From IMG/VR virus record IMGVR_UViG_3300028584_001238: a stretch of DNA of 64,000 nucleotides, one strand, 5' to 3'. Below the pieces are notes generated by a model that had not been told where the DNA came from, did not search any database, and saw only the letters and a list, made by a program, of their open reading frames with translations. Numbering within the stretch: the stretch's first letter is position 1; the number at the start of each line of letters is the position of its first letter. This DNA comes from a virus. Position numbers and translations under genes: made by a program. Positions 1,803-63,975 of this stretch are shown piece after piece.

Positions 1803-2591
1803 ATGTATCTATCATTTCCAAATTACGATGAATTGTCAAACAACCCCAACCTTGCGAAAGACCAAGAAGGTAAAGTGTGGGAATTATTGTACGAAAAATT
1901 TGTAAAAATGAATAATAATCAAAATATCACAAACGAAGATATTCAAAGTAACCTTGGGATTTATGGAACAAATACAAAATTTTATAATACTAAGGATTAC
2001 TGTACAGTTAACTTTGCTGTTAATTTTTTCGATTGTTATATTGTAATACCTGTACATTTGTATTTTAATCAACATGGACAATATAATAGATGGCACTCAA
2101 CATATATGGGATCAAAAAATGATTTAAATTTAATGAATCTTTTAAATATTAATCATTTTAATGACGTTCTATCTAAATTAGAATTTTCATTAGATGATGA
2201 AAACAATAAAACGGTGTATGAAATTATCAAAGAAAATTACATTAAAACACCAGAATATCCAAAGATAAGAACTACTTTAAAATATCGTTTTGACACTGAA
2301 CATAAGGTTTATTTGCGTGGTTTTGAATCAAAAATAAACAACTCAAGTTCTAATTATTCAATGGAAGGTTTTGAGAAGTTTGAAACAGAACTCATGTTTT
2401 TAAAGTTCGTAAAACATGTCATAAATGAAAGAGACTCTGTTGATTCAGCCTTTATCAATTACAATGAAATAGATTTCACTCAATCAGAATGGATGCGGAA
2501 CGTGCATAAATACTTTTTCAGAAGCTTAACAGGTGACAAACGCATGGCATTCTTGGATTACATGAATGTAATAGACATGATAGCAATTTAA
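1803..2591 (+). CDS. hypothetical protein with C-terminal MxxI tag (NNN family)
   Basis: 262 aa; tandem paralog of 2610..3419; ends VIDMIAI. Confidence 0.85.
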   Translation: MYLSFPNYDELSNNPNLAKDQEGKVWELLYEKFVKMNNNQNITNEDIQSNLGIYGTNTKFYNTKDYCTVNFAVNFFDCYIVIPVHLYFNQHGQYNRWHSTYMGSKNDLNLMNLLNINHFNDVLSKLEFSLDDENNKTVYEIIKENYIKTPEYPKIRTTLKYRFDTEHKVYLRGFESKINNSSSNYSMEGFEKFETELMFLKFVKHVINERDSVDSAFINYNEIDFTQSEWMRNVHKYFFRSLTGDKRMAFLDYMNVIDMIAI

Positions 2592-2609
2592 CAAAATACA
2601 AGGTGCCTG

Positions 2610-3419
2610 ATGAAATTATATTTTCCACATTTTAAAGATTTATCTATGAATAATAAGCTCAAAGACAAACACTTTGAAATTATTCGGGCCATGATGTGTG
2701 AAAAATTAATAGCGATTAACAATAATCCAAATTTAACGAAAGAGTTAATTGAAGAACATCTTGATTTAGTAAAAGATGAAACCTCTTTTGATGTATGTGG
2801 AAAATCAAATGATTGTATTCTCATTACCTTTAAATTTAACCTATTTGAATTGTTTGAATGCGAGTTTGATTTGCCTATTTACGTTTATTATAATGAAAAA
2901 GGTCAACAAACTCATTACAATGCTCTGTATAAGGGGGACTCACTAGATTCAACATTAATCCATTATCTGAACTTAAATCATTTCAACAAAGATAATAATG
3001 AATTAGAGTTTTATTTACAAAAAGATTTTTACGGATCAGCCTATGCTATAAAGCAGAAACACTGGGTGATCTTGTTGCATTTAAGAAAAATATCAAATAT
3101 GACATATTTCTTTGATAAAGATCATAAAATTTGCCGTAAGACCTTTGTATTGAAAAATATAGTTAAATCTAATAGTATAAGTTACTCACTCCACTCTAAT
3201 GGTGATGTTGAATCAGAAATGATGTTGTTAAGATTTACTAACCACATTATGAAAGTAAAAAAAGATGTGGATTCAAGTTTTTTCGATTACGAAAATTTTA
3301 ATTTAGACGACAACAATTGGTTAAAAATAGTTAACAAGTCATTTTATGATAATTTTAATGGTGATAACAAAGTCGCTTTTATGGATTACTTAAAACTGAT
3401 TGAAATGATCGAAATCTAA
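2610..3419 (+). CDS. hypothetical protein with C-terminal MxxI tag (NNN family)
   Basis: 269 aa; paralog of 1803..2591; ends LIEMIEI. Confidence 0.85.
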   Translation: MKLYFPHFKDLSMNNKLKDKHFEIIRAMMCEKLIAINNNPNLTKELIEEHLDLVKDETSFDVCGKSNDCILITFKFNLFELFECEFDLPIYVYYNEKGQQTHYNALYKGDSLDSTLIHYLNLNHFNKDNNELEFYLQKDFYGSAYAIKQKHWVILLHLRKISNMTYFFDKDHKICRKTFVLKNIVKSNSISYSLHSNGDVESEMMLLRFTNHIMKVKKDVDSSFFDYENFNLDDNNWLKIVNKSFYDNFNGDNKVAFMDYLKLIEMIEI

Positions 3420-3527
3420 CAAAACTGCATTATATTGCATAAAAGGATAAAAAAAAGCACCTAAATCTGCAATATAATGCCGATTAGGTGCCATCTTTTA
3501 ATATTAAGCAGTATTATATTGCCGATT

Positions 3528-4157
3528 TCAAATATCAATCATTCTCATCAATGTCACTTGATCTGCAGTAAAGATGTTTTTACTAAGATCATAACAATCC
3601 TCAAATGTAATATCTTCAACAAAAGGAAATTGTTTTTTAATCTCTTTAAAATTCATGTTTTGTCCACGACGCCTAGCCAACATGTCCATGACACGCCATT
3701 CACCTTTCTTACGCTTGTCATAGATAATGTGAGACATCTCAAAGCAACCATCATCTGAGGTGGCATACTGAAACGTCCAGAAATCACCATCACGACGATC
3801 TACAACAACAGGTTGCATAGGATTGTCACGAACAGCAATACCATTCACATACCAGCTTGTAGTATTTAAATTACCATTTTTAAGATAAAATAGAGAGCAT
3901 GGAAGATTAGCTAGTCTATGAAAAATATGATGTTTTTCTGGCTTAATCTGAAACCCTTTGAAGACAATGAGATCTCCACTCAATTGGAAATAAATCGTAT
4001 GTAAATCGTCCAGAACATAAATATATTCATTTCGATTCTCTGGTTTAATAATTACTCCTGATTGAACAAACTCGTTAACAGGCGTGATAAAACGACCAGT
4101 TTGCTCTACTGAGAACAAGCATTCTTTTAACTGGTCAATGGTATTGATTAATAGCAT
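3528..4157 (-). CDS. hypothetical protein with C-terminal MxxI tag
   Basis: 209 aa; ends LMRMIDI. Confidence 0.8.
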   Translation of the reverse strand: MLLINTIDQLKECLFSVEQTGRFITPVNEFVQSGVIIKPENRNEYIYVLDDLHTIYFQLSGDLIVFKGFQIKPEKHHIFHRLANLPCSLFYLKNGNLNTTSWYVNGIAVRDNPMQPVVVDRRDGDFWTFQYATSDDGCFEMSHIIYDKRKKGEWRVMDMLARRRGQNMNFKEIKKQFPFVEDITFEDCYDLSKNIFTADQVTLMRMIDI

Positions 4158-4166
4158 GGTTATTCC

Positions 4167-4814
4167 TTAAATAAGAATCATATCAATAATAGGTAGATAA
4201 GATTTAATCAATTTGCTTTTGTTGGTAAGGTTTTCAATTGATCTAACTTTACCTCTCAAAGCAGATGCAATTTCTGGATAGTCTGCTGCCAGTTCGACCA
4301 ATGTTATTTCCCGCCCATTGCGTTTAAAGGTCATATCAATAAGGTATTGGGATTGATCAGTGACTCTAATTTGGCTCACATAGGTTTTATCATAAACATA
4401 GCGATACTTAGCAATAAAAGATCCATAATTGCGGACAACACTTTCAGGTTTATTTCCACGGTTATAAGTATAAAATTGTTTTTCTTCCCACTCGTGACTA
4501 CTTGAATCAAAACGAACAGATTGAATCACAAATTTTTTCAAATTAAGGATAGTTACATTATCAATGGCATATTTTTTCAATACAACAAAATGATCAATAA
4601 TTAAGAAGTAAACACGAAAACCTTCATGGACAAAAAAGAAAGCAATAGCATCTTTATGATAATTTTTCAAGTTAGCCAATAATTTATCACACTCATCATC
4701 AGTAGCAATAAAGTCACTGATAAGAATATCAGGATCAACAAAAACCGGAGCATTGTAGTCAAATGCCACCGATTTCAAATCATCTGGAGTAACAACTGTA
4801 ATTGATTTTCTCAT
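4167..4814 (-). CDS. hypothetical protein with C-terminal MxxI tag
   Basis: 215 aa; ends IIDMILI. Confidence 0.8.
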   Translation of the reverse strand: MRKSITVVTPDDLKSVAFDYNAPVFVDPDILISDFIATDDECDKLLANLKNYHKDAIAFFFVHEGFRVYFLIIDHFVVLKKYAIDNVTILNLKKFVIQSVRFDSSSHEWEEKQFYTYNRGNKPESVVRNYGSFIAKYRYVYDKTYVSQIRVTDQSQYLIDMTFKRNGREITLVELAADYPEIASALRGKVRSIENLTNKSKLIKSYLPIIDMILI

Positions 4815-14448: not shown

Positions 14449-15342
14449 TTAATTTTCGATGGCAGGTTCAACGAATTTTGCAAGGCGTTTACTTTCATCG
14501 TAGAAGTAAAGGTCAATATCCTCAACAGCACGACCTTCAAAGCGTTTAATGAACTCAGCCATGACAGCCGTTGGAACCATCTTAAACTCTACACTACCAT
14601 CATCCCTTTCCTTCACGTAGAAAGGCTTATCAAAGGGTTTACGAAGCGTGAAAGCTTCCAGACGAACATTATAACCAAGTGGTGAAATAGCGTCCAAAAT
14701 GACCTCTTTCTTGTAGTCGCCTTGTTCAAAGACAAGTTCATCAGAAGAAAGGCTATACACACACGAAACATCCACACCGGCTTTAATCAATTTATCAGCA
14801 ATCTGGTTCATCATGAAGTATTGAACCTTTTGTTGACGTTTAGGATTCAAGTTACCAAACAAGATTTGGCGAGTAATTTTACTGATGAGCATGTATTCAT
14901 TAAAACCACGGCTAATCGCAAATTCTGCATAATCGGTATGACCACCAAAAATGGTAGGTTCTACCAGCAACAGCGACTGAAAGTTGGCTTTAACCAAATC
15001 AATACTGTAAAACTTTTTATCAGCCTTATCCGACTTGTAAAGGTCTTTTGCACTGATTTTGATTTCTTTGTTGAACACACTCATGTCCATTGCGTTAAAA
15101 CGAGCGTATTCAGGCGAAGCCGAGATCATATCAAGGGTGCCATTCACTGTTTTACGGTTATGTTCAAAGAAGAATTGACTACCGAACGACTCAAAGTCAC
15201 GCTTAAAAGTTTCGTATTTTTCAACGGAACCATAGTAAGGGCTGGTCAGTTCAAGGTAATGTTCAAAGTAGGGAGACTTATCGACTGCAATCGGCAGTTT
15301 AAGGTCTTTGATGAAATTTTTGTTAAAGTCGGAAGCTTTCAT
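14449..15342 (-). CDS. hypothetical protein with polymerase-palm-like acidic motifs
   Basis: 297 aa; YSIDLVKANFQSL and SLSSDELVF resemble family A/B motifs A and C; function uncertain. Confidence 0.55.
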   Translation of the reverse strand: MKASDFNKNFIKDLKLPIAVDKSPYFEHYLELTSPYYGSVEKYETFKRDFESFGSQFFFEHNRKTVNGTLDMISASPEYARFNAMDMSVFNKEIKISAKDLYKSDKADKKFYSIDLVKANFQSLLLVEPTIFGGHTDYAEFAISRGFNEYMLISKITRQILFGNLNPKRQQKVQYFMMNQIADKLIKAGVDVSCVYSLSSDELVFEQGDYKKEVILDAISPLGYNVRLEAFTLRKPFDKPFYVKERDDGSVEFKMVPTAVMAEFIKRFEGRAVEDIDLYFYDESKRLAKFVEPAIEN

Positions 15343-19401: not shown

Positions 19402-20079
19402 TTAAATATTTAACATGTCCGTTAATAAACCTAATTTTTTATAATCATCATGTGTTGCCGATTCATTAATTTTCCATATCTCAAAGATCTTTTCCCGGTA
19501 GGAATAAAAATCACTACTTAAAAAATCACCTTGACCATTATAATTAAAAACCAATTGAATAAAATGAAATTGATCAAGGCTAGTCTCCTTTGTAATCAAC
19601 TGAGCCATTGGATTAGTGTCACCATTATCCTTAAAAGATGGTATTCTAAGTTCAATAGAAATTAAAAACTTATCTTCTTTCGTTAAATGAGTAAATGATA
19701 TAACTGCATATATTCGACTTAGTAAAGTGGAAAGCACATATTTACCATCAATAAGCGACCTAAAACGACAAGCATTAAAAATAGATAATAGATTATTAAT
19801 ATTTTTCATAACTTTACAAATTATAGGATCTTTAAATTTTGAGCATAATGTATTGTTTTCAACATAAAGCATGTCATAGAATGTTGTAACAACGCCATAA
19901 TCCATACCATATACATCTTGCATATGAACACTTGGATTAAATGGGCCTTTTACATTACATTTATGTTTAGATTCATATTTAGGATTTTTTAGTTCTATAC
20001 CAAAATTATCTAAAAAAGATTTATTAGATAAAATTATTTCTTTTTCATATAGAATTTCTTTTGAACGTGTTCTTTTCAT
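19402..20079 (-). CDS. hypothetical protein with C-terminal MxxI tag
   Basis: Ends DYKKLGLLTDMLNI; paralog of the next two genes. Confidence 0.8.
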   Translation of the reverse strand: MKRTRSKEILYEKEIILSNKSFLDNFGIELKNPKYESKHKCNVKGPFNPSVHMQDVYGMDYGVVTTFYDMLYVENNTLCSKFKDPIICKVMKNINNLLSIFNACRFRSLIDGKYVLSTLLSRIYAVISFTHLTKEDKFLISIELRIPSFKDNGDTNPMAQLITKETSLDQFHFIQLVFNYNGQGDFLSSDFYSYREKIFEIWKINESATHDDYKKLGLLTDMLNI

Positions 20080-20093: not shown

Positions 20094-20816
20094 TTAAATG
20101 GAAATCATATCCGACAGTAAACCAAGTCTTTTATAGTCAATCTCTTGGCAGTCTTCGGTAATTTCCCATACATTTATCATGCGTTTCTTATATCGTTGAA
20201 TATCATTGATAATACTGTCACCTGTGATTGAGTAAATACAATTAAAACCCGATGGGTCATAAAAATGTTGAATGGCTGTCTGTTTAGTCGTTAAATAATA
20301 AGCATCACCTGTTGTTCTAAGAGAAATTTTAAAACTAACCTGAATAGTAATGCTATCAGTTTCTTTAATGTATTTGAACACAAGCCAAGGTTTAACATTG
20401 GGTAAAACTGGCAAATATTCAATGTAATCGTTAGTCAGACGAAAACTTTCAGTAATGCCTAGATATTGATTAACATCGTTTAACATAGTCTGAATGATAG
20501 GCGATTTTAAGGCGGATGAAACGATTCCATTATCAAGCGTAATGATGTTTTCAAATGAAAAACAAACATCACCAAACCCAGATAAATAGATATTAACATC
20601 ATGCCCATCATCTGATTTTGCGGTGTATTCGCCAAATAAAGATGGCTCCATATCATGAATAGAGATATTCAGATGCTCAAAAATCAATTGTTTAACATCA
20701 ATAATCTTTTCAAGTGTTGATTTCTGAGGTGCAATAGGATAAACCATTTGTCTTAACGCTCGGCCATATGACGATTCTTCTGTTTCTTCGTTAGAGTTAA
20801 TATCATCATTCATCAT
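20094..20816 (-). CDS. hypothetical protein with C-terminal MxxI tag
   Basis: Ends DYKRLGLLSDMISI. Confidence 0.85.
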   Translation of the reverse strand: MMNDDINSNEETEESSYGRALRQMVYPIAPQKSTLEKIIDVKQLIFEHLNISIHDMEPSLFGEYTAKSDDGHDVNIYLSGFGDVCFSFENIITLDNGIVSSALKSPIIQTMLNDVNQYLGITESFRLTNDYIEYLPVLPNVKPWLVFKYIKETDSITIQVSFKISLRTTGDAYYLTTKQTAIQHFYDPSGFNCIYSITGDSIINDIQRYKKRMINVWEITEDCQEIDYKRLGLLSDMISI

Positions 20817-20823: not shown

Positions 20824-21471
20824 TTAAATATTAATCATGTCAGTTAAATCACCAAGACGTTTGTAGTCAATATCACTACTATTTTCATCAATATTCCAAA
20901 CCTTTAAAAGTCTGGTCTTATAAGTTAACAAATCACTAAAATAGTTTGAACCATTTGCATGATAGACGGCTTTAAATCCAGACGGTTCATAACCATGTTG
21001 AATAATGACATCTTTTGTTGTGATGTAAATAGACTCTTCTGATTCAATAGTGGGATTTAAGTCAAGATGAATCATCATATTATCACACTCAACATTATAT
21101 TTGAAAATAATAGAAGGTTTGATATTGTCTAAAATAGGATAGAATACGTCTAGATCCCATGTTGTAAAACGTAAGGCGTCGAAAATATAAAAGAAAGAAT
21201 TCATCTCTTTTACAAACTCATTAATCATCGGATCATTGAGTTTGGAAACTAAAAGACCATTTTCAAGATGCAATAAATTTTTAATACCAATGTAGAGATC
21301 GGTTTGGTTTAAAGCATAAATATCGACTGGATAATCCCCAGAAGCCACATAGTCTCCGTGGCTTTCACGAGTGACATTAGTAAAGTCAATACCAAATTTA
21401 GCGACCATAATTTTCCGTGCAGACTCAATACTGGTAAGATGGATGGGATCAGATTCGTGATAGCTTCTCAT
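20824..21471 (-). CDS. hypothetical protein with C-terminal MxxI tag
   Basis: Ends DYKRLGDLTDMINI. Confidence 0.85.
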   Translation of the reverse strand: MRSYHESDPIHLTSIESARKIMVAKFGIDFTNVTRESHGDYVASGDYPVDIYALNQTDLYIGIKNLLHLENGLLVSKLNDPMINEFVKEMNSFFYIFDALRFTTWDLDVFYPILDNIKPSIIFKYNVECDNMMIHLDLNPTIESEESIYITTKDVIIQHGYEPSGFKAVYHANGSNYFSDLLTYKTRLLKVWNIDENSSDIDYKRLGDLTDMINI

Positions 21472-22094
21472 ATCATCACCATATCATTAAGTGCAGTTAA
21501 TCTGACAACATCGTCCATTGTCATCTTTTTAGATTTACAGTAATCATGCACAAAATGGAACGCTTTATCAATTCCATATATTGATTGAAAAGCATCACCA
21601 ATATAGGAGATTTGGAATTCCTTTTGACACCCCGGCAAATCAATCTCATCCAGAAACACAAACTTTGCATAATGGGGGTAAGGAATAGCCTTAAAAATAA
21701 TTTGTGGGTTCTTGATTGTATAGGTGACAACAAATTTAAGTGTGAACTTAGTATCTTCGAAGAAATGGATATGTTTACCACCCATTGTCTTCAATTTAAC
21801 CACATTAAGCACCATAGCTCGCTCATTTATGTCATCAACAATGGGCTGAAGGTTAGAGCCAGCTTTCTTTAAAGTGAGATTTTGACCATCAAAGCCTATG
21901 CTTGATGTGAAAGTGATATTGGCACACTTATTAAAGATATAGATGCGAGCTGGGCCAAGCGATGTCTTGGCTGTATAAATAGTATGTTGATTTTTAACCA
22001 AACACATACTGGTAATATCAATGTCATAGACAGATTTCATACGGTCCACAACTGTCTTCAATTGTTCTTCATGTGCCATGCAATAACACTCCAA
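21468..22094 (-). CDS. hypothetical protein with C-terminal MxxI tag
   Basis: Ends LTALNDMVMI; ATGA overlap with the next gene. Confidence 0.8.
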   Translation of the reverse strand: MECYCMAHEEQLKTVVDRMKSVYDIDITSMCLVKNQHTIYTAKTSLGPARIYIFNKCANITFTSSIGFDGQNLTLKKAGSNLQPIVDDINERAMVLNVVKLKTMGGKHIHFFEDTKFTLKFVVTYTIKNPQIIFKAIPYPHYAKFVFLDEIDLPGCQKEFQISYIGDAFQSIYGIDKAFHFVHDYCKSKKMTMDDVVRLTALNDMVMI

Positions 22095-23286: not shown

Positions 23287-24252
23287 TTAACACTTTGCCA
23301 TTTCAATGACAGGTTTAATATTGGCTTTAAAATATTCATAATATTCTTTTGTTAACGCCACCGGAACATTATCAATAATTTCATAATTTGATTTAAAGTC
23401 TTCAATAAATGGTAGTAAATATGAGACAATCGTTTTTTTAACATCATTATTAAAACGAGAATATTCATTAAAAATAATAACGTCATTGTGAATTAATCTA
23501 GTATTTAAAACAAAACCACAATAAAATTGAATATTCTCACTAATAATTTGTTCTTCATCATTTGAATTAATTAAACTCTCTGCAACATTGATTTCATGAA
23601 CTTTATATTGTTCTGATGTAAGTAGTCTAACTTGTAATTCAAGCTTTTTACTTTGATTTTGTTCAAATTGTTTAGAGTGAATGGTAGCCGTTGCCTTGTC
23701 AAATGACAGCAAAAAAGAAACAAAAGGAAAAATGCCCTTCATGCTTGAACTTTCATAACCAATTGATTTAATAATACTGTTCACATCATAATTAGACTCA
23801 TTGATAAGAAGATAACTAGGAAGATGATTTAACATATTTTTGTTGTGAGACAAATCAAGGGTAGTTTTGGATGAATCGATCAGCAACATATCAGCATGTT
23901 CTTTAAAAAATAACATAGATGTTTCGGTTAATGACGAATAAATATGTTCAAAAACAATCATAGAAATTGGAAGAATATTATGAAGGTCATCATAATACTG
24001 ATTTACATCTTTAATAAGTTCTTTTATTGTATCTTTTCCAATTATTCCACGACTTTTTCTTAAATGAACATTAATGCTCGAAATTATAATATCTTTATAC
24101 TCATCAACATTACTATGTGTTAAATGATAGATTTGAGCATTATCAAAACCTAATCGTTGGTTTGTTTCATCAATAAAAGACAAAAGGTTAGCAGACAAGG
24201 TTCTTTTAGACGCCTTCTTGAGAAATTGTTTGTTATGTTGAATGATTTGCAT
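23287..24252 (-). CDS. hypothetical protein with C-terminal MxxC variant tag
   Basis: 321 aa; ends PVIEMAKC. Confidence 0.8.
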   Translation of the reverse strand: MQIIQHNKQFLKKASKRTLSANLLSFIDETNQRLGFDNAQIYHLTHSNVDEYKDIIISSINVHLRKSRGIIGKDTIKELIKDVNQYYDDLHNILPISMIVFEHIYSSLTETSMLFFKEHADMLLIDSSKTTLDLSHNKNMLNHLPSYLLINESNYDVNSIIKSIGYESSSMKGIFPFVSFLLSFDKATATIHSKQFEQNQSKKLELQVRLLTSEQYKVHEINVAESLINSNDEEQIISENIQFYCGFVLNTRLIHNDVIIFNEYSRFNNDVKKTIVSYLLPFIEDFKSNYEIIDNVPVALTKEYYEYFKANIKPVIEMAKC

Positions 24253-27731: not shown

Positions 27732-28424
27732 ATGAAATATGATTACCGACATCCAGAAACACCAGAAGAAATTAAAAACGTGAAATCCAAGCTTTCTGTT
27801 GCAACGTATGAACAAAAAAACCTATTTGCCCGTTTCATGGCGGGTGATTATGAATGGGCAGAGTTTCAAGCTGATAATGGCTGTAAAACATTGGTTGAGT
27901 TGGGGTATTACATTTCTACTCGACCTCCAATTGAAGACATTATTGCAGCTTACTCTGATTTTGGGATTATTGCCGAACCCGTCAAAGGGTCTGCATGGCA
28001 TACTCAATCAATGGTAGCGGTCAATCATGATGGTATTCAATATGGACTGGATGATCGTGGTCGATATGCTGCTGAGAAGGATAAAAACAGTATTGAACAT
28101 GCTATCAAGCATTTTAAATTGATGAGCACTCACTACCATAACCGCATTAAGACAATTCATAACCATCTGGTATCTAAATCAAATGAGCCTATTTGGGTGT
28201 TAGCGGGTGGTGGTTATCAAATCCAAGCTTCATTTGGTAACAAGAATGGTTATATTGCTACGCTTGATTTGGATATGAATAGCTTTGTAAAAGTAGGTGT
28301 TGAAAATTCACAAAGGGCAAAAGTTATTAAAATTAAAAAATATGAATTATCTATGGAAGCTAAAAATTTGGAAGGGTTTTTTAGCGATTTTAAAGAAAAT
28401 AACTTTGTTTTAAAGGTTAGATAA
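27732..28424 (+). CDS. hypothetical protein
   Basis: 230 aa ORF. Confidence 0.8.
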   Translation: MKYDYRHPETPEEIKNVKSKLSVATYEQKNLFARFMAGDYEWAEFQADNGCKTLVELGYYISTRPPIEDIIAAYSDFGIIAEPVKGSAWHTQSMVAVNHDGIQYGLDDRGRYAAEKDKNSIEHAIKHFKLMSTHYHNRIKTIHNHLVSKSNEPIWVLAGGGYQIQASFGNKNGYIATLDLDMNSFVKVGVENSQRAKVIKIKKYELSMEAKNLEGFFSDFKENNFVLKVR

Positions 28425-42370: not shown

Positions 42371-43225
42371 ATGTCAAGACATAAAATAACAATAAATTTC
42401 ATTAGTGGCCTTAACTGGGGTGAAGAAGATCTTTTGTTTGGGATGCCGTCACCTTCACATTTTTGGAATAATACAAAACAAAGTTTAAGCCAAATTGTCA
42501 ACCAAAATGGTGTGCAGCCAAGAGCTAAATCAACATTTTCATTACCTATACTAAATATGCCACCTATGCAGTCAATGAACATGACGCTATTTGATTCTTG
42601 GATTGATTCCTTTCCTAAATTCAATAGCTATCCAAAAAATGAAAAAAAATATAAACATCTAACGGATCTCAATCTTACAAATTTTAAAGAATTTTTGTAC
42701 AACAACGAGTTTGTTGTCATCACCGAAGATGAGGCTACGATTATTGAACTGTTAGACAGTTCAGTTGACAATGAAGATATGACAGTCCATTTAAGTTTTG
42801 TAAACGATAAAGAAAAGCTTTTTGCGAACAAGAAAACATTCGTAAAAAATATTAATAATGAATTGGTTTACTACTTCGATAATTTAAAACCAAGCGTTAT
42901 CGAATGTAAAAATTCTGATATTATCATTAGTAATAATGTGTTTAATTATGAAACAAAACAGAGCTATATGGAACTCCATTATTACAAAGAACTTGGTGTA
43001 TGGGTCAGACTAATCAAAAACCCAGTGGCTGAAAGAATCGTACCAGCTATTGTAGTAACTGATCTTGATGACCATCCACTTGAAGTCCACTGTTATTATA
43101 AAAATAAGTATATTTCAAATGATCTATTAAATGAATTGAAACCAAACATATTAAAAGAAGATTTTAGATCTACAGATTATTTTACAGTGAGAGATATTGA
43201 ATTTTTAGATATGATCTTAATTTAG
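42371..43225 (+). CDS. hypothetical protein with C-terminal MxxI tag (RIVPAI family)
   Basis: Paralog of 43238, 47201 and 59532; ends FLDMILI. Confidence 0.85.
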   Translation: MSRHKITINFISGLNWGEEDLLFGMPSPSHFWNNTKQSLSQIVNQNGVQPRAKSTFSLPILNMPPMQSMNMTLFDSWIDSFPKFNSYPKNEKKYKHLTDLNLTNFKEFLYNNEFVVITEDEATIIELLDSSVDNEDMTVHLSFVNDKEKLFANKKTFVKNINNELVYYFDNLKPSVIECKNSDIIISNNVFNYETKQSYMELHYYKELGVWVRLIKNPVAERIVPAIVVTDLDDHPLEVHCYYKNKYISNDLLNELKPNILKEDFRSTDYFTVRDIEFLDMILI

Positions 43226-43237: not shown

Positions 43238-44143
43238 ATGACACGACATACAATCAGAGTTAAAAATATCTTCAAGACCGATTGGGAAAGTGATGTAGAT
43301 CTTTTACAACTCCATCAAATTGCTGACAAATTTATAAACAGCTCTATCAGTAGTAACATCGGCAACAATATAAATGCTTTAAACATAGGAAATGTAGCTA
43401 ATGTATTTGCTCAAAACAATCCATTAAAATCATTGTTAGGGCCAATTTACTACCAAAACACAAGCTTGTTTAAAAGAAACGCGGATAAAAAACCAGAATA
43501 TAAACACTATCCTGAAATTGAGCCAAGCGTCAAATACATTAAAGATGTCATGGTTGACGATCTACAAGAGATTTTGTTCAGTCGTAACTTCATTAGTTTA
43601 AATAGCGAGAAGTACGAGGCATTGAATTCTTGCATAGATAATATTATTGATGACAATACAATGATAGTAAACATTGATATCGACAACATAGATAAATATG
43701 ACAAAGAATGTGAAGAAAAAGAACATCATTATATCTTGTCTAAAAAAGTATTCCTGAAACAAGTTGATAACAAGATTGATTACTACTTTGATGAAAACAC
43801 ACCTAGCATTATTGAATTCAAAGATTCTAACGTTATTTTGGCTCATGAAGAAGATATAAAAGATACTGGTTCAAAAAAATCCTATATGGCACTGTATCAT
43901 TACACGAAATTAAATGTAATAGTCCACTTGACGGTTAATCCAGACGAATCAAGAATAGTGCCTGCAATTATTATTTATGATATGGATAACAAACCACTAG
44001 AAGTGCATTGCTATTACAAAAATGAATACATTACACCTGACTTAATGGAATTATTAAAACCAAATATATTGATGGAAGATTTTAAAAATAAAGATTATTT
44101 CAGTAAAAAAGAAATGGATTTCTTAGATATGTTAAACATTTAA
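43238..44143 (+). CDS. hypothetical protein with C-terminal MxxI tag (RIVPAI family)
   Basis: Ends FLDMLNI. Confidence 0.85.
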   Translation: MTRHTIRVKNIFKTDWESDVDLLQLHQIADKFINSSISSNIGNNINALNIGNVANVFAQNNPLKSLLGPIYYQNTSLFKRNADKKPEYKHYPEIEPSVKYIKDVMVDDLQEILFSRNFISLNSEKYEALNSCIDNIIDDNTMIVNIDIDNIDKYDKECEEKEHHYILSKKVFLKQVDNKIDYYFDENTPSIIEFKDSNVILAHEEDIKDTGSKKSYMALYHYTKLNVIVHLTVNPDESRIVPAIIIYDMDNKPLEVHCYYKNEYITPDLMELLKPNILMEDFKNKDYFSKKEMDFLDMLNI

Positions 44144-47200: not shown

Positions 47201-48097
47201 ATGTCTAAACACACTGTCATTAAAAATATTTCGCTAGTCACTTATGAATCTCCTATTGAATTCATAGCTGACGATGGGACAGTAACAATACCAATACAGC
47301 CAAGCGAACCGTCTGAAAGAGAAATATATGTTTCATCTGAGAACAAATATGAAGAACTTAAAGAAAATCATGAAATAAGATTACCCTTGGTAATGAATGA
47401 AGATATTAATATTGAAGATGAATTAAACAATATCATACCAAGATATAAGCAATATATTCCTGTAAACAGAAAAATTAAATATAAAGAAAATATTGATGCC
47501 TTTGCATTTAAAGATCTGTTGTTTGGTGACAGTCTAACAGCCGTCAATCATGAATACTATGATCATATTAATCAACTTCTAGAGTTGGTAGTAGACAACG
47601 AAGCAATGATGGTGAGACTGAAATTTAATGATGTTCTTGTCAACAACAAGAATGGTATATTATTGTCTGAAAAAACATTCACAAAATTAGAGGATGGTAA
47701 AGTATCCTATTACTACGATGAAAACACACCCAGTATTATCGAATATAAAAATGCTACGTTCATTCCCATGCATAGTCATTTTTTCATGAGAGCCTTTCAT
47801 GAAGATTTAAGCGACAATAAAAATAAAGAACATTATTTGAAGTGCTATCATTATTTTAATTTAAACATCATTGTCTACATACATGTCAACTTTAGCCAAA
47901 AAAAGATAACACCCGCCATTATAATAACGGATGAAAATCACAAGCCAACAGAAATTCATTATTTTTACAAAAAAAAGTATGTGCCTGCTGCATTAATAGA
48001 TCAGATAAAACCTAATTTACTGAACGAAAATTTTAAAGAAGACGGGTATTTTGATCAGAGAGATATTGATTTCTTAGACATGGTAATGTTTAAATAG
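47201..48097 (+). CDS. hypothetical protein (RIVPAI family), variant tag
   Basis: Paralog of 42371 and 43238; ends FLDMVMFK. Confidence 0.85.
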   Translation: MSKHTVIKNISLVTYESPIEFIADDGTVTIPIQPSEPSEREIYVSSENKYEELKENHEIRLPLVMNEDINIEDELNNIIPRYKQYIPVNRKIKYKENIDAFAFKDLLFGDSLTAVNHEYYDHINQLLELVVDNEAMMVRLKFNDVLVNNKNGILLSEKTFTKLEDGKVSYYYDENTPSIIEYKNATFIPMHSHFFMRAFHEDLSDNKNKEHYLKCYHYFNLNIIVYIHVNFSQKKITPAIIITDENHKPTEIHYFYKKKYVPAALIDQIKPNLLNENFKEDGYFDQRDIDFLDMVMFK

Positions 48098-49038: not shown

Positions 49039-49857
49039 TTAAATATCAACCATCTGAAAGACTAGCAGTTCATCAATAAGACGCTGACGTTGTTCACCTG
49101 TGTAGATGTCTAAAAACATCTTTTTTAATTGAGCAAAACACTTCATGTCTTTAAAATTAACACTGTCTCGAACAAAAGAGTTTACAAATTCAGATTCTTT
49201 GGTATAGGCCGCATTCGCAAAATGGATAAACAATGTTTCATCACTGGCTGAAAGTATTTTATTATCAAATTTCAAGTAGTCATCATTCTCATCATCAATA
49301 ATTTGACTGGATTCAACTTTATTTTTCTTTATCGTGTATTCGATGTGAAACCTGTTACGAGTTGTTTTAACAAAATAATGCTGAAATTTAAAAACATTTT
49401 TTGTGAACACTGTGTAAGTAGTCTCATCTCGAGATGTTCTCAAATAAAAAGAACTTATTCCAATGCTAGGTTTATACATATTTAATAAAGCAAACAAACT
49501 AGAATTCTCTGTTTTTTGAAATGTGATTTCATATGTGTTGTAAGATAAAGGCCACCTAGAATATTCACTATAAAATTCAGCAGAAATTCTAACGGGTATC
49601 AATGTATCACCCAACATAAACGCCGTATCAATAAAAATAAAAGGACGTGAAGGATTATCATTCTTACTAAATTTATTTTCTGTTTCTACGATTTTTAAAT
49701 TGTTAACCAAATAGTCCATCGTAATTTCACTATTGTTATTAAGTTTAAGTAGCATCACGATCAATTTTTTAGTGAAAGATACTACCTGTTTTTCAGTTAA
49801 TGAAGTTTTCAAAGAACTAATATTAAATTTTTCAAAAAGAAACATGTCGCTAATCAT
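49039..49857 (-). CDS. hypothetical protein with C-terminal MxxI tag (NNN family)
   Basis: LLKLNNNSEITMDYL; ends VFQMVDI. Confidence 0.8.
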   Translation of the reverse strand: MISDMFLFEKFNISSLKTSLTEKQVVSFTKKLIVMLLKLNNNSEITMDYLVNNLKIVETENKFSKNDNPSRPFIFIDTAFMLGDTLIPVRISAEFYSEYSRWPLSYNTYEITFQKTENSSLFALLNMYKPSIGISSFYLRTSRDETTYTVFTKNVFKFQHYFVKTTRNRFHIEYTIKKNKVESSQIIDDENDDYLKFDNKILSASDETLFIHFANAAYTKESEFVNSFVRDSVNFKDMKCFAQLKKMFLDIYTGEQRQRLIDELLVFQMVDI

Positions 49858-49866: not shown

Positions 49867-51072
49867 CTAATAATTAGACATTTCAAGTGTTTTAAAATGA
49901 AGATCAGTCACATCTTCTGGTTTGATGTCTAATGTCTTGCTCACATGAGTAATAAACTTATCATAACAAACTTCATAAGCCGCTTCAAAAGAAGGTAGAT
50001 TCAATGAAGTGTATTCGTCTTCAATATAAATCCCTACGGAAATATAAGCACCAATCGTAATACTGTGTCGTCCAGTTATAAAAGTGAAAGGGCAACGCTC
50101 TGTAATCAAATTAAAAATAGTTTTCTTACTGTTGTTTGAACGAACAATCTGAATTTTTGTATCCTTTTGATTAGGATAGCAACTGTCAGACAGACGCATC
50201 AATTCTAGTATTTTTTTCAAATAATCAAGTTCTGATGGTCTTAGAGCAACTTTAAATAAATGGTCTAACAAATAAACCGATTCATTGTGAATAGTAATCT
50301 GAGTTTCGGATAGTTTTGCAACACTCATAATATTCTTTTCAACAGTAAAATTACCAATCACACACAATTCATCTTTATTAAAGACATGTTCGTTACTTAT
50401 GCGATCTTCAAACACCCTAAATTTATTATATTTTTTAATGTGCATGGCAAAGTCCATATCACTTTCATGCGTAAAGGTATGATTATAACGCATTGTTGAG
50501 AAAGCAAAGTTGGTTTGATTGGCAGCCACTGCATTAACAATATTATTATCAACAATCAATGAATGATTCATGAAGATGTCCTTAAACATAGCATCAAACG
50601 CACTCAGTATAGCCATATGAAGCTCATCGTAAGTCATTGCTAACATACATCTATCTTTATTAAACTTGTCATTAATCTGGAAGATCCATTCATTATAGCG
50701 ATAGGCAATAGAGAAGCATTTAAACTTCATCAGAAATGAATCGTCTCGTTTGTGCATAGAGACTGTTGTGACAGGATCTTTCATAGCGTCCAATAAAGGG
50801 TCATAAGGGAATAATCGAAGATAAAATTGAAGAGCCGAATCAATCATTTTAATTTCTGAATCCGTAAAGTCAGAAAACATAAACCGTAAGCTTTCTTGAA
50901 AGCTTGGAAAAATAATAGATAAGGTATCATAACGTGAGCTAGCAAAATATTGAGTTGAAAAACTCATATCACCAACATCACGCACTGGTTCCATTCGTTT
51001 GAAGTTAAATGAATCAATATAGGGAGCCAAATGGATAACATTAGCCAACGTATCAATGCGTGAATGGGACAT
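49867..51072 (-). CDS. hypothetical protein with C-terminal MxxY tag
   Basis: 401 aa; ends TLEMSNY. Confidence 0.8.
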   Translation of the reverse strand: MSHSRIDTLANVIHLAPYIDSFNFKRMEPVRDVGDMSFSTQYFASSRYDTLSIIFPSFQESLRFMFSDFTDSEIKMIDSALQFYLRLFPYDPLLDAMKDPVTTVSMHKRDDSFLMKFKCFSIAYRYNEWIFQINDKFNKDRCMLAMTYDELHMAILSAFDAMFKDIFMNHSLIVDNNIVNAVAANQTNFAFSTMRYNHTFTHESDMDFAMHIKKYNKFRVFEDRISNEHVFNKDELCVIGNFTVEKNIMSVAKLSETQITIHNESVYLLDHLFKVALRPSELDYLKKILELMRLSDSCYPNQKDTKIQIVRSNNSKKTIFNLITERCPFTFITGRHSITIGAYISVGIYIEDEYTSLNLPSFEAAYEVCYDKFITHVSKTLDIKPEDVTDLHFKTLEMSNY

Positions 51073-51135: not shown

Positions 51136-51912
51136 TTAATAAATTTCCATCTCATAGACTTTCAATTCATCCAAAAAAACTTCTTTGTGTGGACTGTTCA
51201 AAATCATATCAAATAAGTGGCGGCTTTTTTTAAATAATTTAAGTGATGAAAAATTGATGGGTATCTTGACAAAAGAATTTAAAAAATAGGATTTACCTGA
51301 ATATAATAAATTAACAAAATCAATATACAAATATTCGAATTCAATATCATCAAAGGTATCTACTGTTAATTTAATTGTTCCTCTATTACAATATCTAACA
51401 TAATGTTGATTAGTTATTAAATGATCCGAGAAATAATAAAATAAATCTAATTTAAAATTGAACTTATGATCAAACAAAAAAACACCTGACATATCAATAA
51501 TATAATCAGAATTTGATTCTGATGGATTAAAAGTCAAAGCTATTCCGTTGTAGTTTGACTTAAATAAATGTAAAAAGGTGATAATATTTTTATCAACTAT
51601 TCGCATTGTTGGATAAGAAAGACTATTAAAAACACCATCGTCATCAAAATTAACATAAACGTACATTGAAACATTAATATCATCAAGACGATAATATAAT
51701 GCAATACCTAATTTTTGTTTTTCTGTAAAATCGTAGATAGTCGTTCTATGATCAGAAAAATGAAGACAATTATTAAGATGTTCAAATGTTATCAACGAAT
51801 TATTGTTGATTAGTGATAGTTTTTTTACAATAACATTTTTAAAGTACATGCATTGCTCCGCACTTAGCGAAACCATGCTTTTGCTTTTTTCATAAGTTTC
51901 AAACAGTGACAT
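51136..51912 (-). CDS. hypothetical protein with C-terminal MxxY tag (NNN family)
   Basis: KLSLINNNSLITFEHL; ends VYEMEIY. Confidence 0.8.
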   Translation of the reverse strand: MSLFETYEKSKSMVSLSAEQCMYFKNVIVKKLSLINNNSLITFEHLNNCLHFSDHRTTIYDFTEKQKLGIALYYRLDDINVSMYVYVNFDDDGVFNSLSYPTMRIVDKNIITFLHLFKSNYNGIALTFNPSESNSDYIIDMSGVFLFDHKFNFKLDLFYYFSDHLITNQHYVRYCNRGTIKLTVDTFDDIEFEYLYIDFVNLLYSGKSYFLNSFVKIPINFSSLKLFKKSRHLFDMILNSPHKEVFLDELKVYEMEIY

Positions 51913-56422: not shown

Positions 56423-57196
56423 TCAAATTTCAATCATATTGATAACTGTATAAAAATCTTTTACATATTCAATATTATCGTATGAAATAAGATCGTATTT
56501 CAAACTATGAAAAAAGTCAGCGATATCCAGATCGCTAAAATTGTCACTGTTAAGGTGAATGGATAAGTCATAAGAAACAATAATTTTTAAGATGTAGTCA
56601 TCTAATGCCAATTGTTCATCTTTTTTTAGGTTAAACGAAAAATCTGTCAAATAATGATTGGAAACAATAGATTTTGCTCTATCAAATATTTTAAATTGGC
56701 AATCAAAGTTTTGTATCGAAAGTTCAGCAATTTCTATTTTGTTAGGGTTTGTAGTTTCAAACAAAATAAATCCATTTTCTTTCGAGTAAGGAATTGTGTA
56801 GGTAATATTCAAATAACTACGCCCCATAGAGCAACCGCCAGAAAGAAGGACATAGTTTACGGTATTGCTATCTAATTTAAAAGAGGTAATTCTTGTTGAT
56901 TTCACAGATTTTAAAAAATCCAAAGCTTTATTAATAGCTGTTTGAATTTTATCAATCCTGAACAGTTTTCGATTAATGATGTCATAAGCATCAATATAGA
57001 CCTTAAAAAGTGATGGATTGGAATGATCAAATTCATTTCCATAAAGCTCCAGCGTCAAATAAAGTGGCTGCCCTACTGTATCTCTCGCGTTTATATAGTA
57101 ACAATCATTAGAAGAAGTGATAATTTTATCACATTGAATATTGTAATAAAGATAGAGTAATTCTTTAACTTTATCTTTGAAACCTTTACTGATCAT
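56423..57196 (-). CDS. hypothetical protein with C-terminal MxxI tag
   Basis: 257 aa; ends VINMIEI. Confidence 0.8.
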   Translation of the reverse strand: MISKGFKDKVKELLYLYYNIQCDKIITSSNDCYYINARDTVGQPLYLTLELYGNEFDHSNPSLFKVYIDAYDIINRKLFRIDKIQTAINKALDFLKSVKSTRITSFKLDSNTVNYVLLSGGCSMGRSYLNITYTIPYSKENGFILFETTNPNKIEIAELSIQNFDCQFKIFDRAKSIVSNHYLTDFSFNLKKDEQLALDDYILKIIVSYDLSIHLNSDNFSDLDIADFFHSLKYDLISYDNIEYVKDFYTVINMIEI

Positions 57197-57204
57197 AATT
57201 ATCC

Positions 57205-59531: not shown

Positions 59532-60284
59532 TTAAATCAATAACATTTTGAACGCATCTATCTCATCTTGCGAAAAATAATCAAAATCAATCACACGTTC
59601 ATCAAATTCTGGTTTTATTGAAGACAATATTTCCTTAGAAATGATTTTATTACCATAAAAGAAATCAGCATAGACAACTCCAAATTCATCATAAGCTATG
59701 ACAAGAGGTAAAATGCGATGTTCTTCTGGATGATTAATGTTGACATTCACGTAAAGACGCTCATGAAAGCGATAAAAAGTTTCTTTATAGGTTACTAAGT
59801 TTGCCGTTCCATCACTAATGTCATCGTATGACAGTCCGGGTTTTTTTGAAAGGTTAACATTAAGCGTAGATGACAAACCATTCTCAAATACATACGGATA
59901 ACGATTGCTTGCATAAAAAAATTTGTCAACCAATAGAAAAGTGCCATCAGGCTCTATTTGAAAATTGAGATAAACCATCAAATCACTCAGTCCTGATTCT
60001 AACACAGCCCCCTTAACAAGCTCTAAAATATAAGATTTGTCAAAACTATCCAGAAAGAAAGCTTCATTTGAAAATAACAATGAATAGAACGTGTCCAGTG
60101 TAAAATCTTTCAAATTAAATAGTTTTAAAGCTTGTCTGCGGTCGTCTATATTCAATTCTTCTCGACAAAGTGGGCGACGTTTCCTAATGACCGGGACAGA
60201 GGTGGCACCTCTAATAATATATTCAGGTGGATCTGTTGAGTTGCGGTCATTAAGAACTTGAACCATGTGTTCTATTTTATACAT
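59532..60284 (-). CDS. hypothetical protein with C-terminal MxxI tag (distant RIVPAI family)
   Basis: HRILPLVIAYD...FFYGNKII...IKP...DYFSQDEIDAFKMLLI. Confidence 0.8.
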   Translation of the reverse strand: MYKIEHMVQVLNDRNSTDPPEYIIRGATSVPVIRKRRPLCREELNIDDRRQALKLFNLKDFTLDTFYSLLFSNEAFFLDSFDKSYILELVKGAVLESGLSDLMVYLNFQIEPDGTFLLVDKFFYASNRYPYVFENGLSSTLNVNLSKKPGLSYDDISDGTANLVTYKETFYRFHERLYVNVNINHPEEHRILPLVIAYDEFGVVYADFFYGNKIISKEILSSIKPEFDERVIDFDYFSQDEIDAFKMLLI

Positions 60285-61784: not shown

Positions 61785-62531
61785 TTAGTAGCAAATCATT
61801 TCTTTTTTAAGTGTTTCAAAGAAATATTTACGAGCGTCTGCAGGCATATTTTTAAAATCATGTTTTACAATTCTAACCATGTCAGCATTAGCCGTTTTGA
61901 TCATTTCTTTCAACTCATTAAGACGTTGAATATAAATCACTTTTTCTTCTTCTGTTTTAGCATCACGAATACTTTGATTAATTGTAACTTTCTTCTTCTC
62001 TGCATTACGGATGGCATCACGAAGGCCAGTCACTTGCTTCACATAAGCAACCTTAATCTGGTTGATTTCAGTGCGTGAGAAAGAAGAACTCACCACAATA
62101 CCAAATGTAGCAATAAAGTTTTCCATCAGCGTGTAATGGTCAGGACACTCTTTGTTTTGTTCAACAAAAGCTTTCAACAAAACCTTAAAGTCTGGAACGG
62201 TGTATTCTCTCGAATATTCAACCTGTCCTTCTTTACTGAGCACTACACTCGCTCGAACAGTTTCTTCTTTCTTATAGTTAAAGCACAAGGCCATACTACG
62301 AGTGTGACGAACATGGCCTTTCTCATTATGACAAACTTCACCCAGAATGCCATAAACGGCCATGTAATCAAAAGTAACTGGATTAACAACAATCACTTCA
62401 CGATTATCTTCACTGCCCAAAGCAATAAAGTTTTTTGGACGGCCATTAAGACCAAAGAACGACAGCAAAGGAAATTCCTTCAATTTGTCGATTTCTGATT
62501 TCATGACGCTCATCGGTGTTTTAGCTTTCAT
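61785..62531 (-). CDS. hypothetical protein with a C-terminal coiled coil
   Basis: 248 aa; ends KKEMICY (possible MxxY tag). Confidence 0.8.
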   Translation of the reverse strand: MKAKTPMSVMKSEIDKLKEFPLLSFFGLNGRPKNFIALGSEDNREVIVVNPVTFDYMAVYGILGEVCHNEKGHVRHTRSMALCFNYKKEETVRASVVLSKEGQVEYSREYTVPDFKVLLKAFVEQNKECPDHYTLMENFIATFGIVVSSSFSRTEINQIKVAYVKQVTGLRDAIRNAEKKKVTINQSIRDAKTEEEKVIYIQRLNELKEMIKTANADMVRIVKHDFKNMPADARKYFFETLKKEMICY

Positions 62532-62640
62532 TTAATTTCGCTCTTGTTTAATATGGCATTATTATACCATAAAAAAACAACAAAAAAAAGAGGGCCAAAG
62601 CCCTCATTTATATTAAAATGCTTAAAATAGTGGTTATTTT

Positions 62641-63105
62641 TTATTCTTCGGTGTAGAAGTGAAAATACCAAACAGGGTAGCCGTTGCCCACATTACAACC
62701 TTTAAGAATTCGATACAGTTTCAATTTTGGATTTGAGTAGATGAGTTGAAGCATTTTCTCAACATCCTTGGGACGGCGTGAGTCAAAATACTGACCTTCA
62801 TTACCCCATACAGAGCGACAAGCCATGTTGTAGGCCAATGAATCGGCTTGAAACAAGCGATCACTATAAACACCACTCAGTGTATCCAGTTTTTCAATTT
62901 CTTTACGCTTCTCACCAAGAATGGCCCAAGTGCAACGAGTCGAAAACGAATAAGGATGATCATATTCAGTTCGCTCAATGACATTATTTTCAAAATCAAG
63001 TGAAATGAGTTTACCATCACTACCATAATTGGTATATGGGTTAATATAGTCATCGTTACTCATTTTGGACGCTGTGCGTTTCGTGGTCATCGAAAATAAC
63101 TCCAT
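62641..63105 (-). CDS. phage-type hypothetical protein
   Basis: YSDRLFQ...GCNVGNGYPVWYF. Confidence 0.75.
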   Translation of the reverse strand: MELFSMTTKRTASKMSNDDYINPYTNYGSDGKLISLDFENNVIERTEYDHPYSFSTRCTWAILGEKRKEIEKLDTLSGVYSDRLFQADSLAYNMACRSVWGNEGQYFDSRRPKDVEKMLQLIYSNPKLKLYRILKGCNVGNGYPVWYFHFYTEE

Positions 63106-63154
63106 TGATTTAAGTTAGGTCTATTGTAACATAAAATAAAGACTTGTGCAGCCT

Positions 63155-63526
63155 TTATTTTATCATGCTACGCAAAGAAGACAACAGAATGACAGCCGCC
63201 GAACCAGTGACAAATACATGCTGGTCATCCACGGAACTGATTTCCAAAGGGCTTTCACAAATCATTTCATAACCATGCTTCAAAAGCACTTCTTCGTCAG
63301 AAAGACGGGGTTTAACAGGCTCTTTGTCTTCATCTTCTTCACGAAGAGTTTCATAAAGGAATTGAAGGGCTTGGTAAGAATCAACAATGCTACACCCATC
63401 CAGTTGATGACGGAGATTAAAATGAAAACCATCAGTTTTCACATAAGTTTCTGAAAACCAATGTTTGGAGCGAAAATATTCGTCATGTTCTTCAAGTAGA
63501 TTTTTTGCTTTGTTCGCGTCAATCAT
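63155..63526 (-). CDS. hypothetical protein
   Basis: 123 aa; AGGAG RBS; ICESPLEI motif. Confidence 0.75.
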   Translation of the reverse strand: MIDANKAKNLLEEHDEYFRSKHWFSETYVKTDGFHFNLRHQLDGCSIVDSYQALQFLYETLREEDEDKEPVKPRLSDEEVLLKHGYEMICESPLEISSVDDQHVFVTGSAAVILLSSLRSMIK

Positions 63527-63534
63527 AGCATCTC

Positions 63535-63975
63535 CTAAATGTTTATCATTTTACGGATTAAGATATAATCATTAAGGTGCTGGATAGCTTCCTTCGTAGA
63601 TTTACAATTATACTCGGATTCATTGACAAAATCAAGAATGAATTTATCTATATTGTAAGAGCTGATGGGGTAACATTTTCGAAATTTAAATTCTGGAAAG
63701 TTAAACTCAACCAAAACACCTGATGAGGCTGAAAACGTTGAGAATGAGAACTTATGTCCAAGATAAGTTAATTCACAGACAAAATTACGGTTCAAAGAAC
63801 CACCAGACAAGATTTTACGCTCATTAAAAGCTTTATTTGTAAAAAAATCAATAAATATACTTTTGAAAACATGCTTAGAAACATTGTGTTCTTTTGACAT
63901 GTAAAGGTTGATGTAAGCTGCTTTTAACATGTTGTCTACATGCTTGGTTTGATTTTCATAATCGTTTACCAACAT
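63535..63975 (-). CDS. hypothetical protein with C-terminal MxxI tag (start uncertain, near window edge)
   Basis: Ends LIRKMINI. Confidence 0.65.
   Translation of the reverse strand: MLVNDYENQTKHVDNMLKAAYINLYMSKEHNVSKHVFKSIFIDFFTNKAFNERKILSGGSLNRNFVCELTYLGHKFSFSTFSASSGVLVEFNFPEFKFRKCYPISSYNIDKFILDFVNESEYNCKSTKEAIQHLNDYILIRKMINI

Follow-up and report, generated by a model that had tools for sequence, protein, structure and literature searches.

Why do so many otherwise dissimilar proteins, encoded on both strands of a single stretch of DNA, end in the same short tail? The stretch is IMG/VR virus record IMGVR_UViG_3300028584_001238 (64,000 nucleotides, hereafter the window), for which a preliminary description had pointed out a C-terminal signature ending M-x-x-I or M-x-x-Y on about 21 proteins and had read it as a common address, such as for loading into a virion. 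Here we report that the tail is real, lineage-specific and proteome-scale, and that it belongs to what is probably a bacterial megaplasmid. The earlier interpretation of the shared tail is partly supported.

We examined 60 non-overlapping, ATG-started open reading frames (ORFs) of at least 140 residues in the window. MxxI-stop terminates 17 of them where 0.12 are expected (binomial p 8e-32), and methionine occupies position -4 from the C-terminus (Met-4) in 21 where 1.5 are expected (p 1e-18), both probabilities counting paralogs as independent. Inside the window proteins, MxxI occurs at 28 of 14,607 positions. The 17 MxxI ORFs first described, on both strands, were all recovered at their coordinates, as were the three ending MxxY (49867, 51136, 61785) and the one ending MxxC (23287). 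The near variant at 47201 (DMVMFK) proved to be a one-residue C-terminal extension, and the ORF at 63535 does carry the tail RKMINI, with its 5' part probably lying past the window edge. Paralogs are not independent, and the 22 tagged window proteins (47201 included) form 11–12 sequence clusters, which roughly halves the number of independent cases and leaves it far above chance. The paralog grouping needs two amendments: 21468 joins 19402, 20094 and 20824, and 1803 and 2610 are homologous to 49039 and 51136. The tagged genes and one untagged lineage marker are listed below, each resting on ORF prediction and clustering where no other basis is given.

1803..2591, plus strand: family 2, 262 residues, ends IDMIAI (ORF, clustering and AlphaFold model)
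2610..3419, plus strand: family 2, 269 residues, ends IEMIEI
3528..4157, minus strand: family 11, 209 residues, ends MRMIDI
4167..4814, minus strand: family 12, 215 residues, ends IDMILI
14449..15342, minus strand: untagged conserved 297-residue gene, lineage marker (homolog clusters)
19402..20079, minus strand: family 3, 225 residues, ends TDMLNI
20094..20816, minus strand: family 3, 240 residues, ends SDMISI
20824..21471, minus strand: family 3, 215 residues, ends TDMINI
21468..22079, minus strand: family 3 (distant), 203 residues, ends NDMVMI
23287..24252, minus strand: family 14, 321 residues, ends IEMAKC
28424..29224, plus strand: family 7, 266 residues, ends VEMITI
29243..30031, plus strand: family 7, 262 residues, ends IKMMTI
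30055..30849, plus strand: family 7, 264 residues, ends VKMAGI
42371..43225, plus strand: family 4, 284 residues, ends LDMILI (ORF and AlphaFold model)
43238..44143, plus strand: family 4, 301 residues, ends LDMLNI (ORF and homolog search)
47201..48097, plus strand: family 4, 298 residues, one-residue extension, ends DMVMFK (ORF and homology)
49039..49857, minus strand: family 2, 272 residues, ends FQMVDI (ORF and homology)
49867..51072, minus strand: family 15, 401 residues, ends LEMSNY
51136..51912, minus strand: family 2, 258 residues, ends YEMEIY (ORF and homology)
56423..57196, minus strand: family 19, 257 residues, ends INMIEI
59532..60284, minus strand: family 4 (distant), 250 residues, ends FKMLLI (ORF and homology)
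61785..62531, minus strand: family 20, 248 residues, ends KEMICY
63535..63975, minus strand: family 16, ends RKMINI, 5' part probably past the window edge (ORF; orthologue of 262 residues in relative G001)

Neither DNA repetition nor composition explains these endings. Tail codons and stop codons vary from gene to gene, which rules out a DNA-repeat artefact and indicates selection on the motif as protein. A composition artefact is ruled out by three controls that stand at chance, namely phage GAP32 and the related fragments G006 and G007. Searched against Pfam and PHROGs, the 22 tagged window proteins gave nothing above cut-off and one sub-threshold Pfam match, on 29243.

Is the tail a property of the window or of a lineage? 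The relatives compared are fragments (G001–G009, no complete genome among them), with counts made on ORFs of at least 140 residues. The enrichment of Met-4 first noted in the window holds across G001–G005, G008 and G009. G002 (437 kb) has Met-4 in 97 of 404 ORFs where 9.1 are expected, with tags in every 20-kb bin. G001 (193 kb), which is colinear with the window and mostly 80–92% identical to it in nucleotide sequence block by block, has 56 of 193. Overlapping and hence not independent regions in G003, G004 and G005 give 40 of 155, 55 of 179 and 46 of 156. The more distant G008 and G009, whose common proteins with the other fragments are a median of 36–37% identical, give 42 of 245 and 41 of 170; the first 40 kb of G008 contain no tagged ORF. 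Across the six fragments besides G002 the tagged share is 17–31%, and a 16.5-kb segment from a metagenome contig of 520 kb, colinear with the window, has 5 tagged ORFs out of 15. Homologs of 43238 retain the tail even at 36% identity. One array in G001 (167984–180847) holds about 14 tagged paralogs directly after a ribosome recycling factor gene and is broken by a Sir2 gene.

Three control sequences lack the tail. Phage GAP32 has Met-4 in 4 of 282 ORFs (6.6 expected) and MxxI in 0 of 282; ORFs were counted because tallying the pattern in the raw GAP32 DNA gave no information (68 versus 77 in the control). The sister-lineage fragments G006 and G007 have 6 of 268 (6.2 expected) and 2 of 191 (4.7 expected), so the tail is not needed by all such plasmids. 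Searches for wider homologs returned little: the phage and plasmid collections had no DNA match for window 49039–57196, tblastn matched neither 43238 in phages nor 54466 in plasmids, 14449 had two matches at 29% in the plasmid collection, and an exhaustive HMMER search with 49039 gave four proteins. The ESM Atlas gave only leads under 0.9 for 1803 and none for 20824.

The motif itself is as first noted and longer, reaching back to -13. Using one representative per cluster (n = 99, a set whose selection fixes Met-4 and which includes a few chance cases), we obtained the consensus phi(-13), D/N/E(-11), phi(-9), L/V/I/T(-7), phi(-6), E/K/D(-5), M(-4), phi(-3), I/Y(-1), where phi is hydrophobic. 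Proline and glycine are nearly absent from -14 onward in these representatives, the residue is hydrophobic at -1 in 0.84 and at -3 in 0.69 of them, and the D/E fraction is 0.34 at -15 and 0.37 at -11, with Asp as common as Glu. The motif is predicted to form a C-terminal helix of about 13 residues whose register is set by the stop codon. That register is strict, in keeping with the position-fixed terminus proposed earlier: among 1,147 ORFs from the window and G001–G005, 315 have Met at -4, 21 at -5 and 49 at -3, with 26.9 expected per position, and the extended motif ends at the stop codon in 211 ORFs, lies one residue further in in 6 and occurs at any other position in at most 4. Of 1,413 within-family pairs below 40% identity, 1,369 retain the terminal Met; for other Met residues the figure is 604 of 6,249. 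The families had at least five members and were chosen as mostly tagged, a choice that favours retention.

Geometry suggests which side of the helix matters. On an ideal helix, positions -7, -3, -6, -13 and -9 make up a hydrophobic face, while Met-4 and residue -1 fall on the polar side among -5, -8, -11 and -12. Met-4 lies a median of 127 degrees off the hydrophobic moment (more than 90 degrees in 82 of the 99 family representatives) and residue -1 a median of 153 degrees off (more than 90 degrees in 88 of 99), making an exposed Met likely. By this geometry a conserved hydrophobic pair would sit on the polar side, beside a free carboxyl end whose position is fixed, an arrangement that resembles a pocket-binding epitope. 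The proteins that bear it are narrow in length (5–95% range, 170–322 residues) and, as first observed of signal peptides in the window, are poor in N-terminal hydrophobic segments of signal-like or membrane type (23 of 315, versus 191 of 832 untagged proteins). A common promoter for the tagged genes was considered and not accepted, the best upstream 6-mer of G002 having p 1e-4 among 400 tested.

What kind of element carries the tail? We conclude that it is probably a bacterial megaplasmid and not a phage, since the 437-kb G002 yields no capsid, portal or terminase and homologs of the window marker lie on contigs of 1.84–1.92 Mb. In G002, 278 of the 307 untagged ORFs of at least 140 residues were scanned against Pfam (18 others and the 11 shortest fell outside) and 95 against PHROGs; neither scan matched a capsid, portal, terminase or sheath protein, and the Pfam scan matched no ribosomal protein. 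The longest ORF of G002 has 778 residues. Its recognisable genes include translation functions (ThrRS-type, SerRS, TyrRS, GatA/B-type, TilS, Thg1), DnaK, NAPRTase, NAD synthase, RNA ligases, a chemoreceptor, efflux parts and TnpB, and the conflict enzymes ART-PolyVal, PBECR5 and DEDDh_C. What speaks against a plasmid comes from G002, with a PHROG 'DNA polymerase' match and weak matches to tape-measure proteins, and from window gene 34278, which partly matches a PHROG 'virion structural protein' (137 residues, E 9.5e-20). The latter gene (34278–36644) encodes a 788-residue exported protein and has two copies in G001. A GAP32-like jumbo phage, first suggested by a few accessory-gene matches, failed as a candidate, with 13 of 286 G001 proteins matching GAP32 and none of them a virion gene by Pfam labels. 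IMG/VR files G002, G006, G007 and G008 as viruses, 91–98% complete; G002, the one scanned in depth, yielded no virion gene.

The marker at 14449 has 68 homologs. Members of its 90% cluster lie on contigs of 1,917,244, 1,859,102, 1,843,594 and 773,483 bp, from which we infer an element of 1.84–1.92 Mb. A cluster 54% identical to 14449 lies on contigs of 1.30–1.37 Mb, including a Shigella flexneri record, and another homolog cluster includes a Serratia record. By size and host, the 1.30–1.37-Mb cluster would correspond to clade 2 of the pMEGAs, megaplasmids of Enterobacteriaceae that span 1.3–1.58 Mb with 26–30% guanine-plus-cytosine (GC) content and about 80% hypothetical genes (Guitor et al., bioRxiv 10.1101/2025.09.30.679422, PMC12633466). 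G006 has a marker 97% identical to that cluster and a GC content of 30.5%, with no tag and no homolog of the tagged proteins, which makes the window's source most likely a larger, 33%-GC sister lineage of the pMEGAs. The GC content of the window is 33.3%, that of G008 32.2% and that of G009 31.2%. A lineage with 1.84–1.92-Mb contigs exceeds the 1.58-Mb pMEGA maximum and possibly represents undescribed very large plasmids. As for hosts and habitats, the plasmid collection contains gammaproteobacterial and Ralstonia versions of the ribosome recycling factor of G001 at 44–49% identity; GTDB scans with that factor and with 14449 returned nothing, and blastn against E. coli gave no match. Metagenomes from food production, groundwater, freshwater and food contain window-lineage DNA (7 runs containing at least half the words, one of them possibly the source).

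The likeness to pMEGAs goes beyond megabase size (inferred here), low GC, mostly hypothetical genes and the lack of virion genes. Both have tRNA synthetases, DnaK, signal peptidase I, NAD enzymes, and chemotaxis and efflux genes, as well as multicopy RNase H-like, TnpB and shufflon-like genes, represented here by eight DEDDh_C matches in G002, TnpB in G002 and the window, and Shufflon_N, just above cut-off, in a 511-residue G008 protein. In both, one non-enzymatic protein class takes up roughly between a fifth and a quarter of all proteins, a class which in pMEGA4 consists of alpha-solenoids; the tagged proteins here are strand-rich instead. With a GC content of 33%, outside the 26–30% range, the window element is a relative of the pMEGAs and not a member. 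It also differs in its inferred size (1.84–1.92 Mb as against up to 1.58 Mb), in the tag, which G006 from the 1.3–1.37-Mb lineage lacks together with any homolog of the tagged proteins, and in being found in food, groundwater and freshwater samples. No Dot/Icm, coupling-protein, relaxase, Rep or partition gene appeared in the tag-positive fragments scanned.

Do the tagged proteins form one family or many? Clustering 345 proteins with the last 20 residues trimmed left 108 tag-bearing clusters, 70 of them singletons and mostly from G002. Profile-profile comparison of 24 families, run without context pseudocounts, gave 2 significant pairs among 276. None of the tagged G001 proteins scanned against Pfam matched a family above cut-off. 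AlphaFold models 1803 (mean predicted local distance difference test score, pLDDT, 86.9) as three helices, a five-strand meander, a helix, six strands and three helices, the final helix spanning residues 247–261. The model of 42371 (mean pLDDT 74.2) has a low-confidence or disordered segment at 12–71, a strand-rich body with one short helix, and a final helix at 273–283. Families 2 and 4 are thus predicted to differ in the order of their secondary structure. Foldseek searches of viral models with 1803 and 42371 gave no match at E ≤ 0.001, and VIA against solved chains gave best Z scores of 5.0 (a cystatin; root-mean-square deviation 4.0, 79 residues aligned) and 2.6 (root-mean-square deviation 6.0, 119 aligned). 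Fold searches therefore returned no known fold for either model, which is not proof of new folds.

What might such a tail do? On balance we consider it probable, by a modest measure, that a shared, position-fixed terminal helix docks varied non-enzymatic bodies onto one common hub outside secretion. The face formed by -13, -9, -7, -6 and -3 would rest against the body of the protein itself, leaving Met-4, Ile/Tyr-1 and the free carboxyl group to point outward and fit a pocket on a partner. The tagged proteins read as cytoplasmic, plug-bearing binding modules because they are 170–322 residues long, have few signal or membrane segments and no enzyme domain, and because the conflict enzymes bear lysine-rich tails instead. 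A bolder form of this proposal, possible if doubtful, is a library of plug-in adaptors on plasmids of about 1.9 Mb, in which unrelated new folds with the same Met helix couple targets to one element-encoded unfoldase or other hub. On the main proposal the roughly hundred kinds of bodies would be interchangeable target-binding adaptors, which might remove or block host-defence, phage or rival-plasmid proteins in the cytoplasm. More tentative again is the identity of the hub, perhaps a Clp/FtsH-type machine of the element itself, a choice suggested by the fact that such elements encode machines of their own and that adaptors are known to dock on unfoldase N-domains. Candidate hubs are a 758-residue ClpA/B-type AAA+ ATPase in the tag-positive G009 (121545–123821, minus strand) and the DnaK of G002. 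Among pMEGAs, ClpX and ClpP occur once each in all 20, ClpB is encoded too, and pMEGA4 has three FtsH-like proteins (PMC12633466).

A rather unlikely alternative is that extreme divergence within a single superfamily, or a few, produced the tagged proteins, with the last helix structural or an oligomer interface and not an address. Much of what speaks for it weighs directly against docking. With tails trimmed, cross-family profile matches at E < 0.05 number 91 for tagged and 21 for untagged proteins, the tagged making up 23% of proteins, and profile pairs 2/7, 0/7, 0/2 and 3/18 can be aligned over their full length, with low scores; many bodies may accordingly be one diverged superfamily. Many of the cross-family matches lie inside one real superfamily (families 0, 1, 8, 30 and 36), and families 6 and 14 also merge by profile. 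Profile scores between tagged families are slightly above those of tagged-untagged controls (p 0.017), though not above reversed-profile controls (p 0.35). Because the profiles are shallow, absent homology is weak evidence for separate origins. The narrow size range and the tandem arrays, a sign of ongoing duplication, also fit a structural helix, as does the high pLDDT of the last helix in single-chain models. Further points count against docking: family 20 orthologues of 61785 in G004, G005 and G008 lack the Met at similar length (endings RIYN, QIRY), two family-1 members lack it too, and the sister lineages G006 and G007 are tag-less while pMEGAs encode Clp proteins, so that Clp presence does not predict the tag. 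The Met-less family 20 orthologues are natural controls for the tag. A core helix, however, needs no fixed distance from the stop codon, and here the motif is terminal in 211 ORFs and at +1 in 6; conservation favours Met itself and not aliphatic residues in general, the polar face is where Met-4 and residue -1 fall, and families 2 and 4 differ in predicted topology and in fold-search behaviour. Of the diversity of bodies first claimed, then, the lack of detectable homology among many and the two predicted topologies stand, while several families merge and weak cross-family matches are enriched for tagged proteins. A fair reading is that the bodies comprise several superfamilies, neither one nor a hundred.

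Other accounts keep the tail as a signal and change its reader. Type IV secretion signals are usually looser than this motif, and we regard export through a Dot/Icm system as improbable. It would fit the scarcity of signal-like segments in the tagged proteins, and pMEGAs do encode Dot/Icm parts, IcmW, DotN and the coupling protein (PMC12633466). Legionella Dot/Icm signals (PMC7251119) include a RalF-type hydrophobic extreme C-terminus, the E-block and a C-terminal-helix motif, FxxxLxxxK, read by LvgA; there, too, a short C-terminal feature sits on hundreds of unrelated proteins, and in one case a helix inserts a residue into an adaptor pocket. The hydrophobic extreme C-terminus is common to both, a weak criterion. 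The differences are that here Met is almost invariant and its spacing to the stop codon fixed, that the tagged proteins show no enzyme domains, and that no secretion gene was seen in the tag-positive fragments scanned, which lie outside the element's core region. The sister lineages G006 and G007 have no tag, and the likely cargo (ART-PolyVal, PBECR5, DEDDh) ends in lysine-rich tails instead. Less probable still is a degron conferring a short half-life through Tsp/Prc, FtsH or ClpXP/AP recognition of non-polar C-termini. The fixed free C-terminus with hydrophobic residues at -1 and -3 would suit it, as would the Clp and FtsH proteins of related elements; here, however, the prediction is of an amphipathic helix that conserves a face for packing, and the degrons known to us are unstructured tails. 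Hardly credible, finally, is a giant phage that uses the C-terminal tail to bring proteins into virions or a phage compartment, as had been entertained at first. The IMG/VR listing of relatives as viruses, the PHROG matches of window 34278 and G002, and some accessory genes common to GAP32-like phages point that way, against which stand the missing virion genes of G002, the marker homologs on 1.3–1.9-Mb contigs, the 13 of 286 G001 matches to GAP32 and the absence of the motif from that phage.

Several other genes were noticed. A pair of proteins of about 600 and 550 residues with lysine-rich ends and no assigned family (window 52736–56292) recurs in G002 (20688–24188, 53903–57360, 70264–73787, 326356–329947), G008 and G009; similar-sized pairs in G006 and G007 end RPKIR, RPKL or RPRMR. 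The lysine-rich ends form a second class of tail, which resembles type IV transfer signals and may be one. The DEDDh_C exonuclease-like family is multicopy in G002 (eight Pfam matches), G001, G008 and G009, with a conserved HNSGNDA motif and mostly lysine-rich tails, and is perhaps the counterpart of the multicopy RNase H-like families in pMEGA clade 2. G009 also encodes a 2,309-residue protein with an Mbeg1-like domain (67179) and a 476-residue HipA_C/LepB_N kinase-like protein with a lysine-rich tail (161567). Two G001 proteins of about 175 residues (104644–105162, 105287–105820), with orthologues in G003–G005, end QLDLF and QLELF, which resemble the sliding-clamp-binding motif. The product of window 41391–41810 has no Pfam match, and its N-terminus resembles a type IV pilin leader. 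An IS605 TnpB gene (window 45418–46566) coincides with an alignment gap in G001, pointing to recent insertion. Further window features are:

9489–9947 and 61327–61722: cytidine/dCMP deaminase-family genes
15902–16483: signal peptidase I
31259–31335: tRNA-Arg(CCG)
60378–60887: HD hydrolase

Has such a tail been seen before? Open-licence PubMed Central and bioRxiv literature, with subscription journals outside its scope, yielded no description of the motif. The main text of PMC12633466 has 0 occurrences of 'C-terminal', and the 21 listed of the 41 'C-terminal' matches in its spreadsheet are structure, family or domain labels. The available text of the CBB phage paper (PMC5259590) does not mention the motif. 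Comparable adaptor libraries, namely F-box proteins, poxvirus ankyrin/PRANC proteins and SspB with its ClpX-binding tail, show no sequence or fold match to the tagged proteins. They do combine a variable target-binding body with a constant terminal docking motif, and their expansions are large and lineage-specific. The bacterial adaptors we know of number a few per genome and not hundreds.

A strict tail on about a quarter of the larger proteins points to one heavily used interaction and offers a handle on hundreds of unannotatable genes; if the sampled rate holds, each element would have several hundred tagged genes. Should the partner be a protease or unfoldase, the system would amount to programmable protein removal, at a scale we do not know of in bacteria, and the tail to a compact engineering tag. 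Should it be a secretion coupling complex, the tail would serve as a type IV export signal of unusual sharpness. An adaptor library of this kind, if real, would be the bacterial equivalent of F-box substrate receptors. Beyond the tail itself, the results indicate a lineage of very large plasmids not yet described, fragments of which are filed in IMG/VR as nearly complete viruses.

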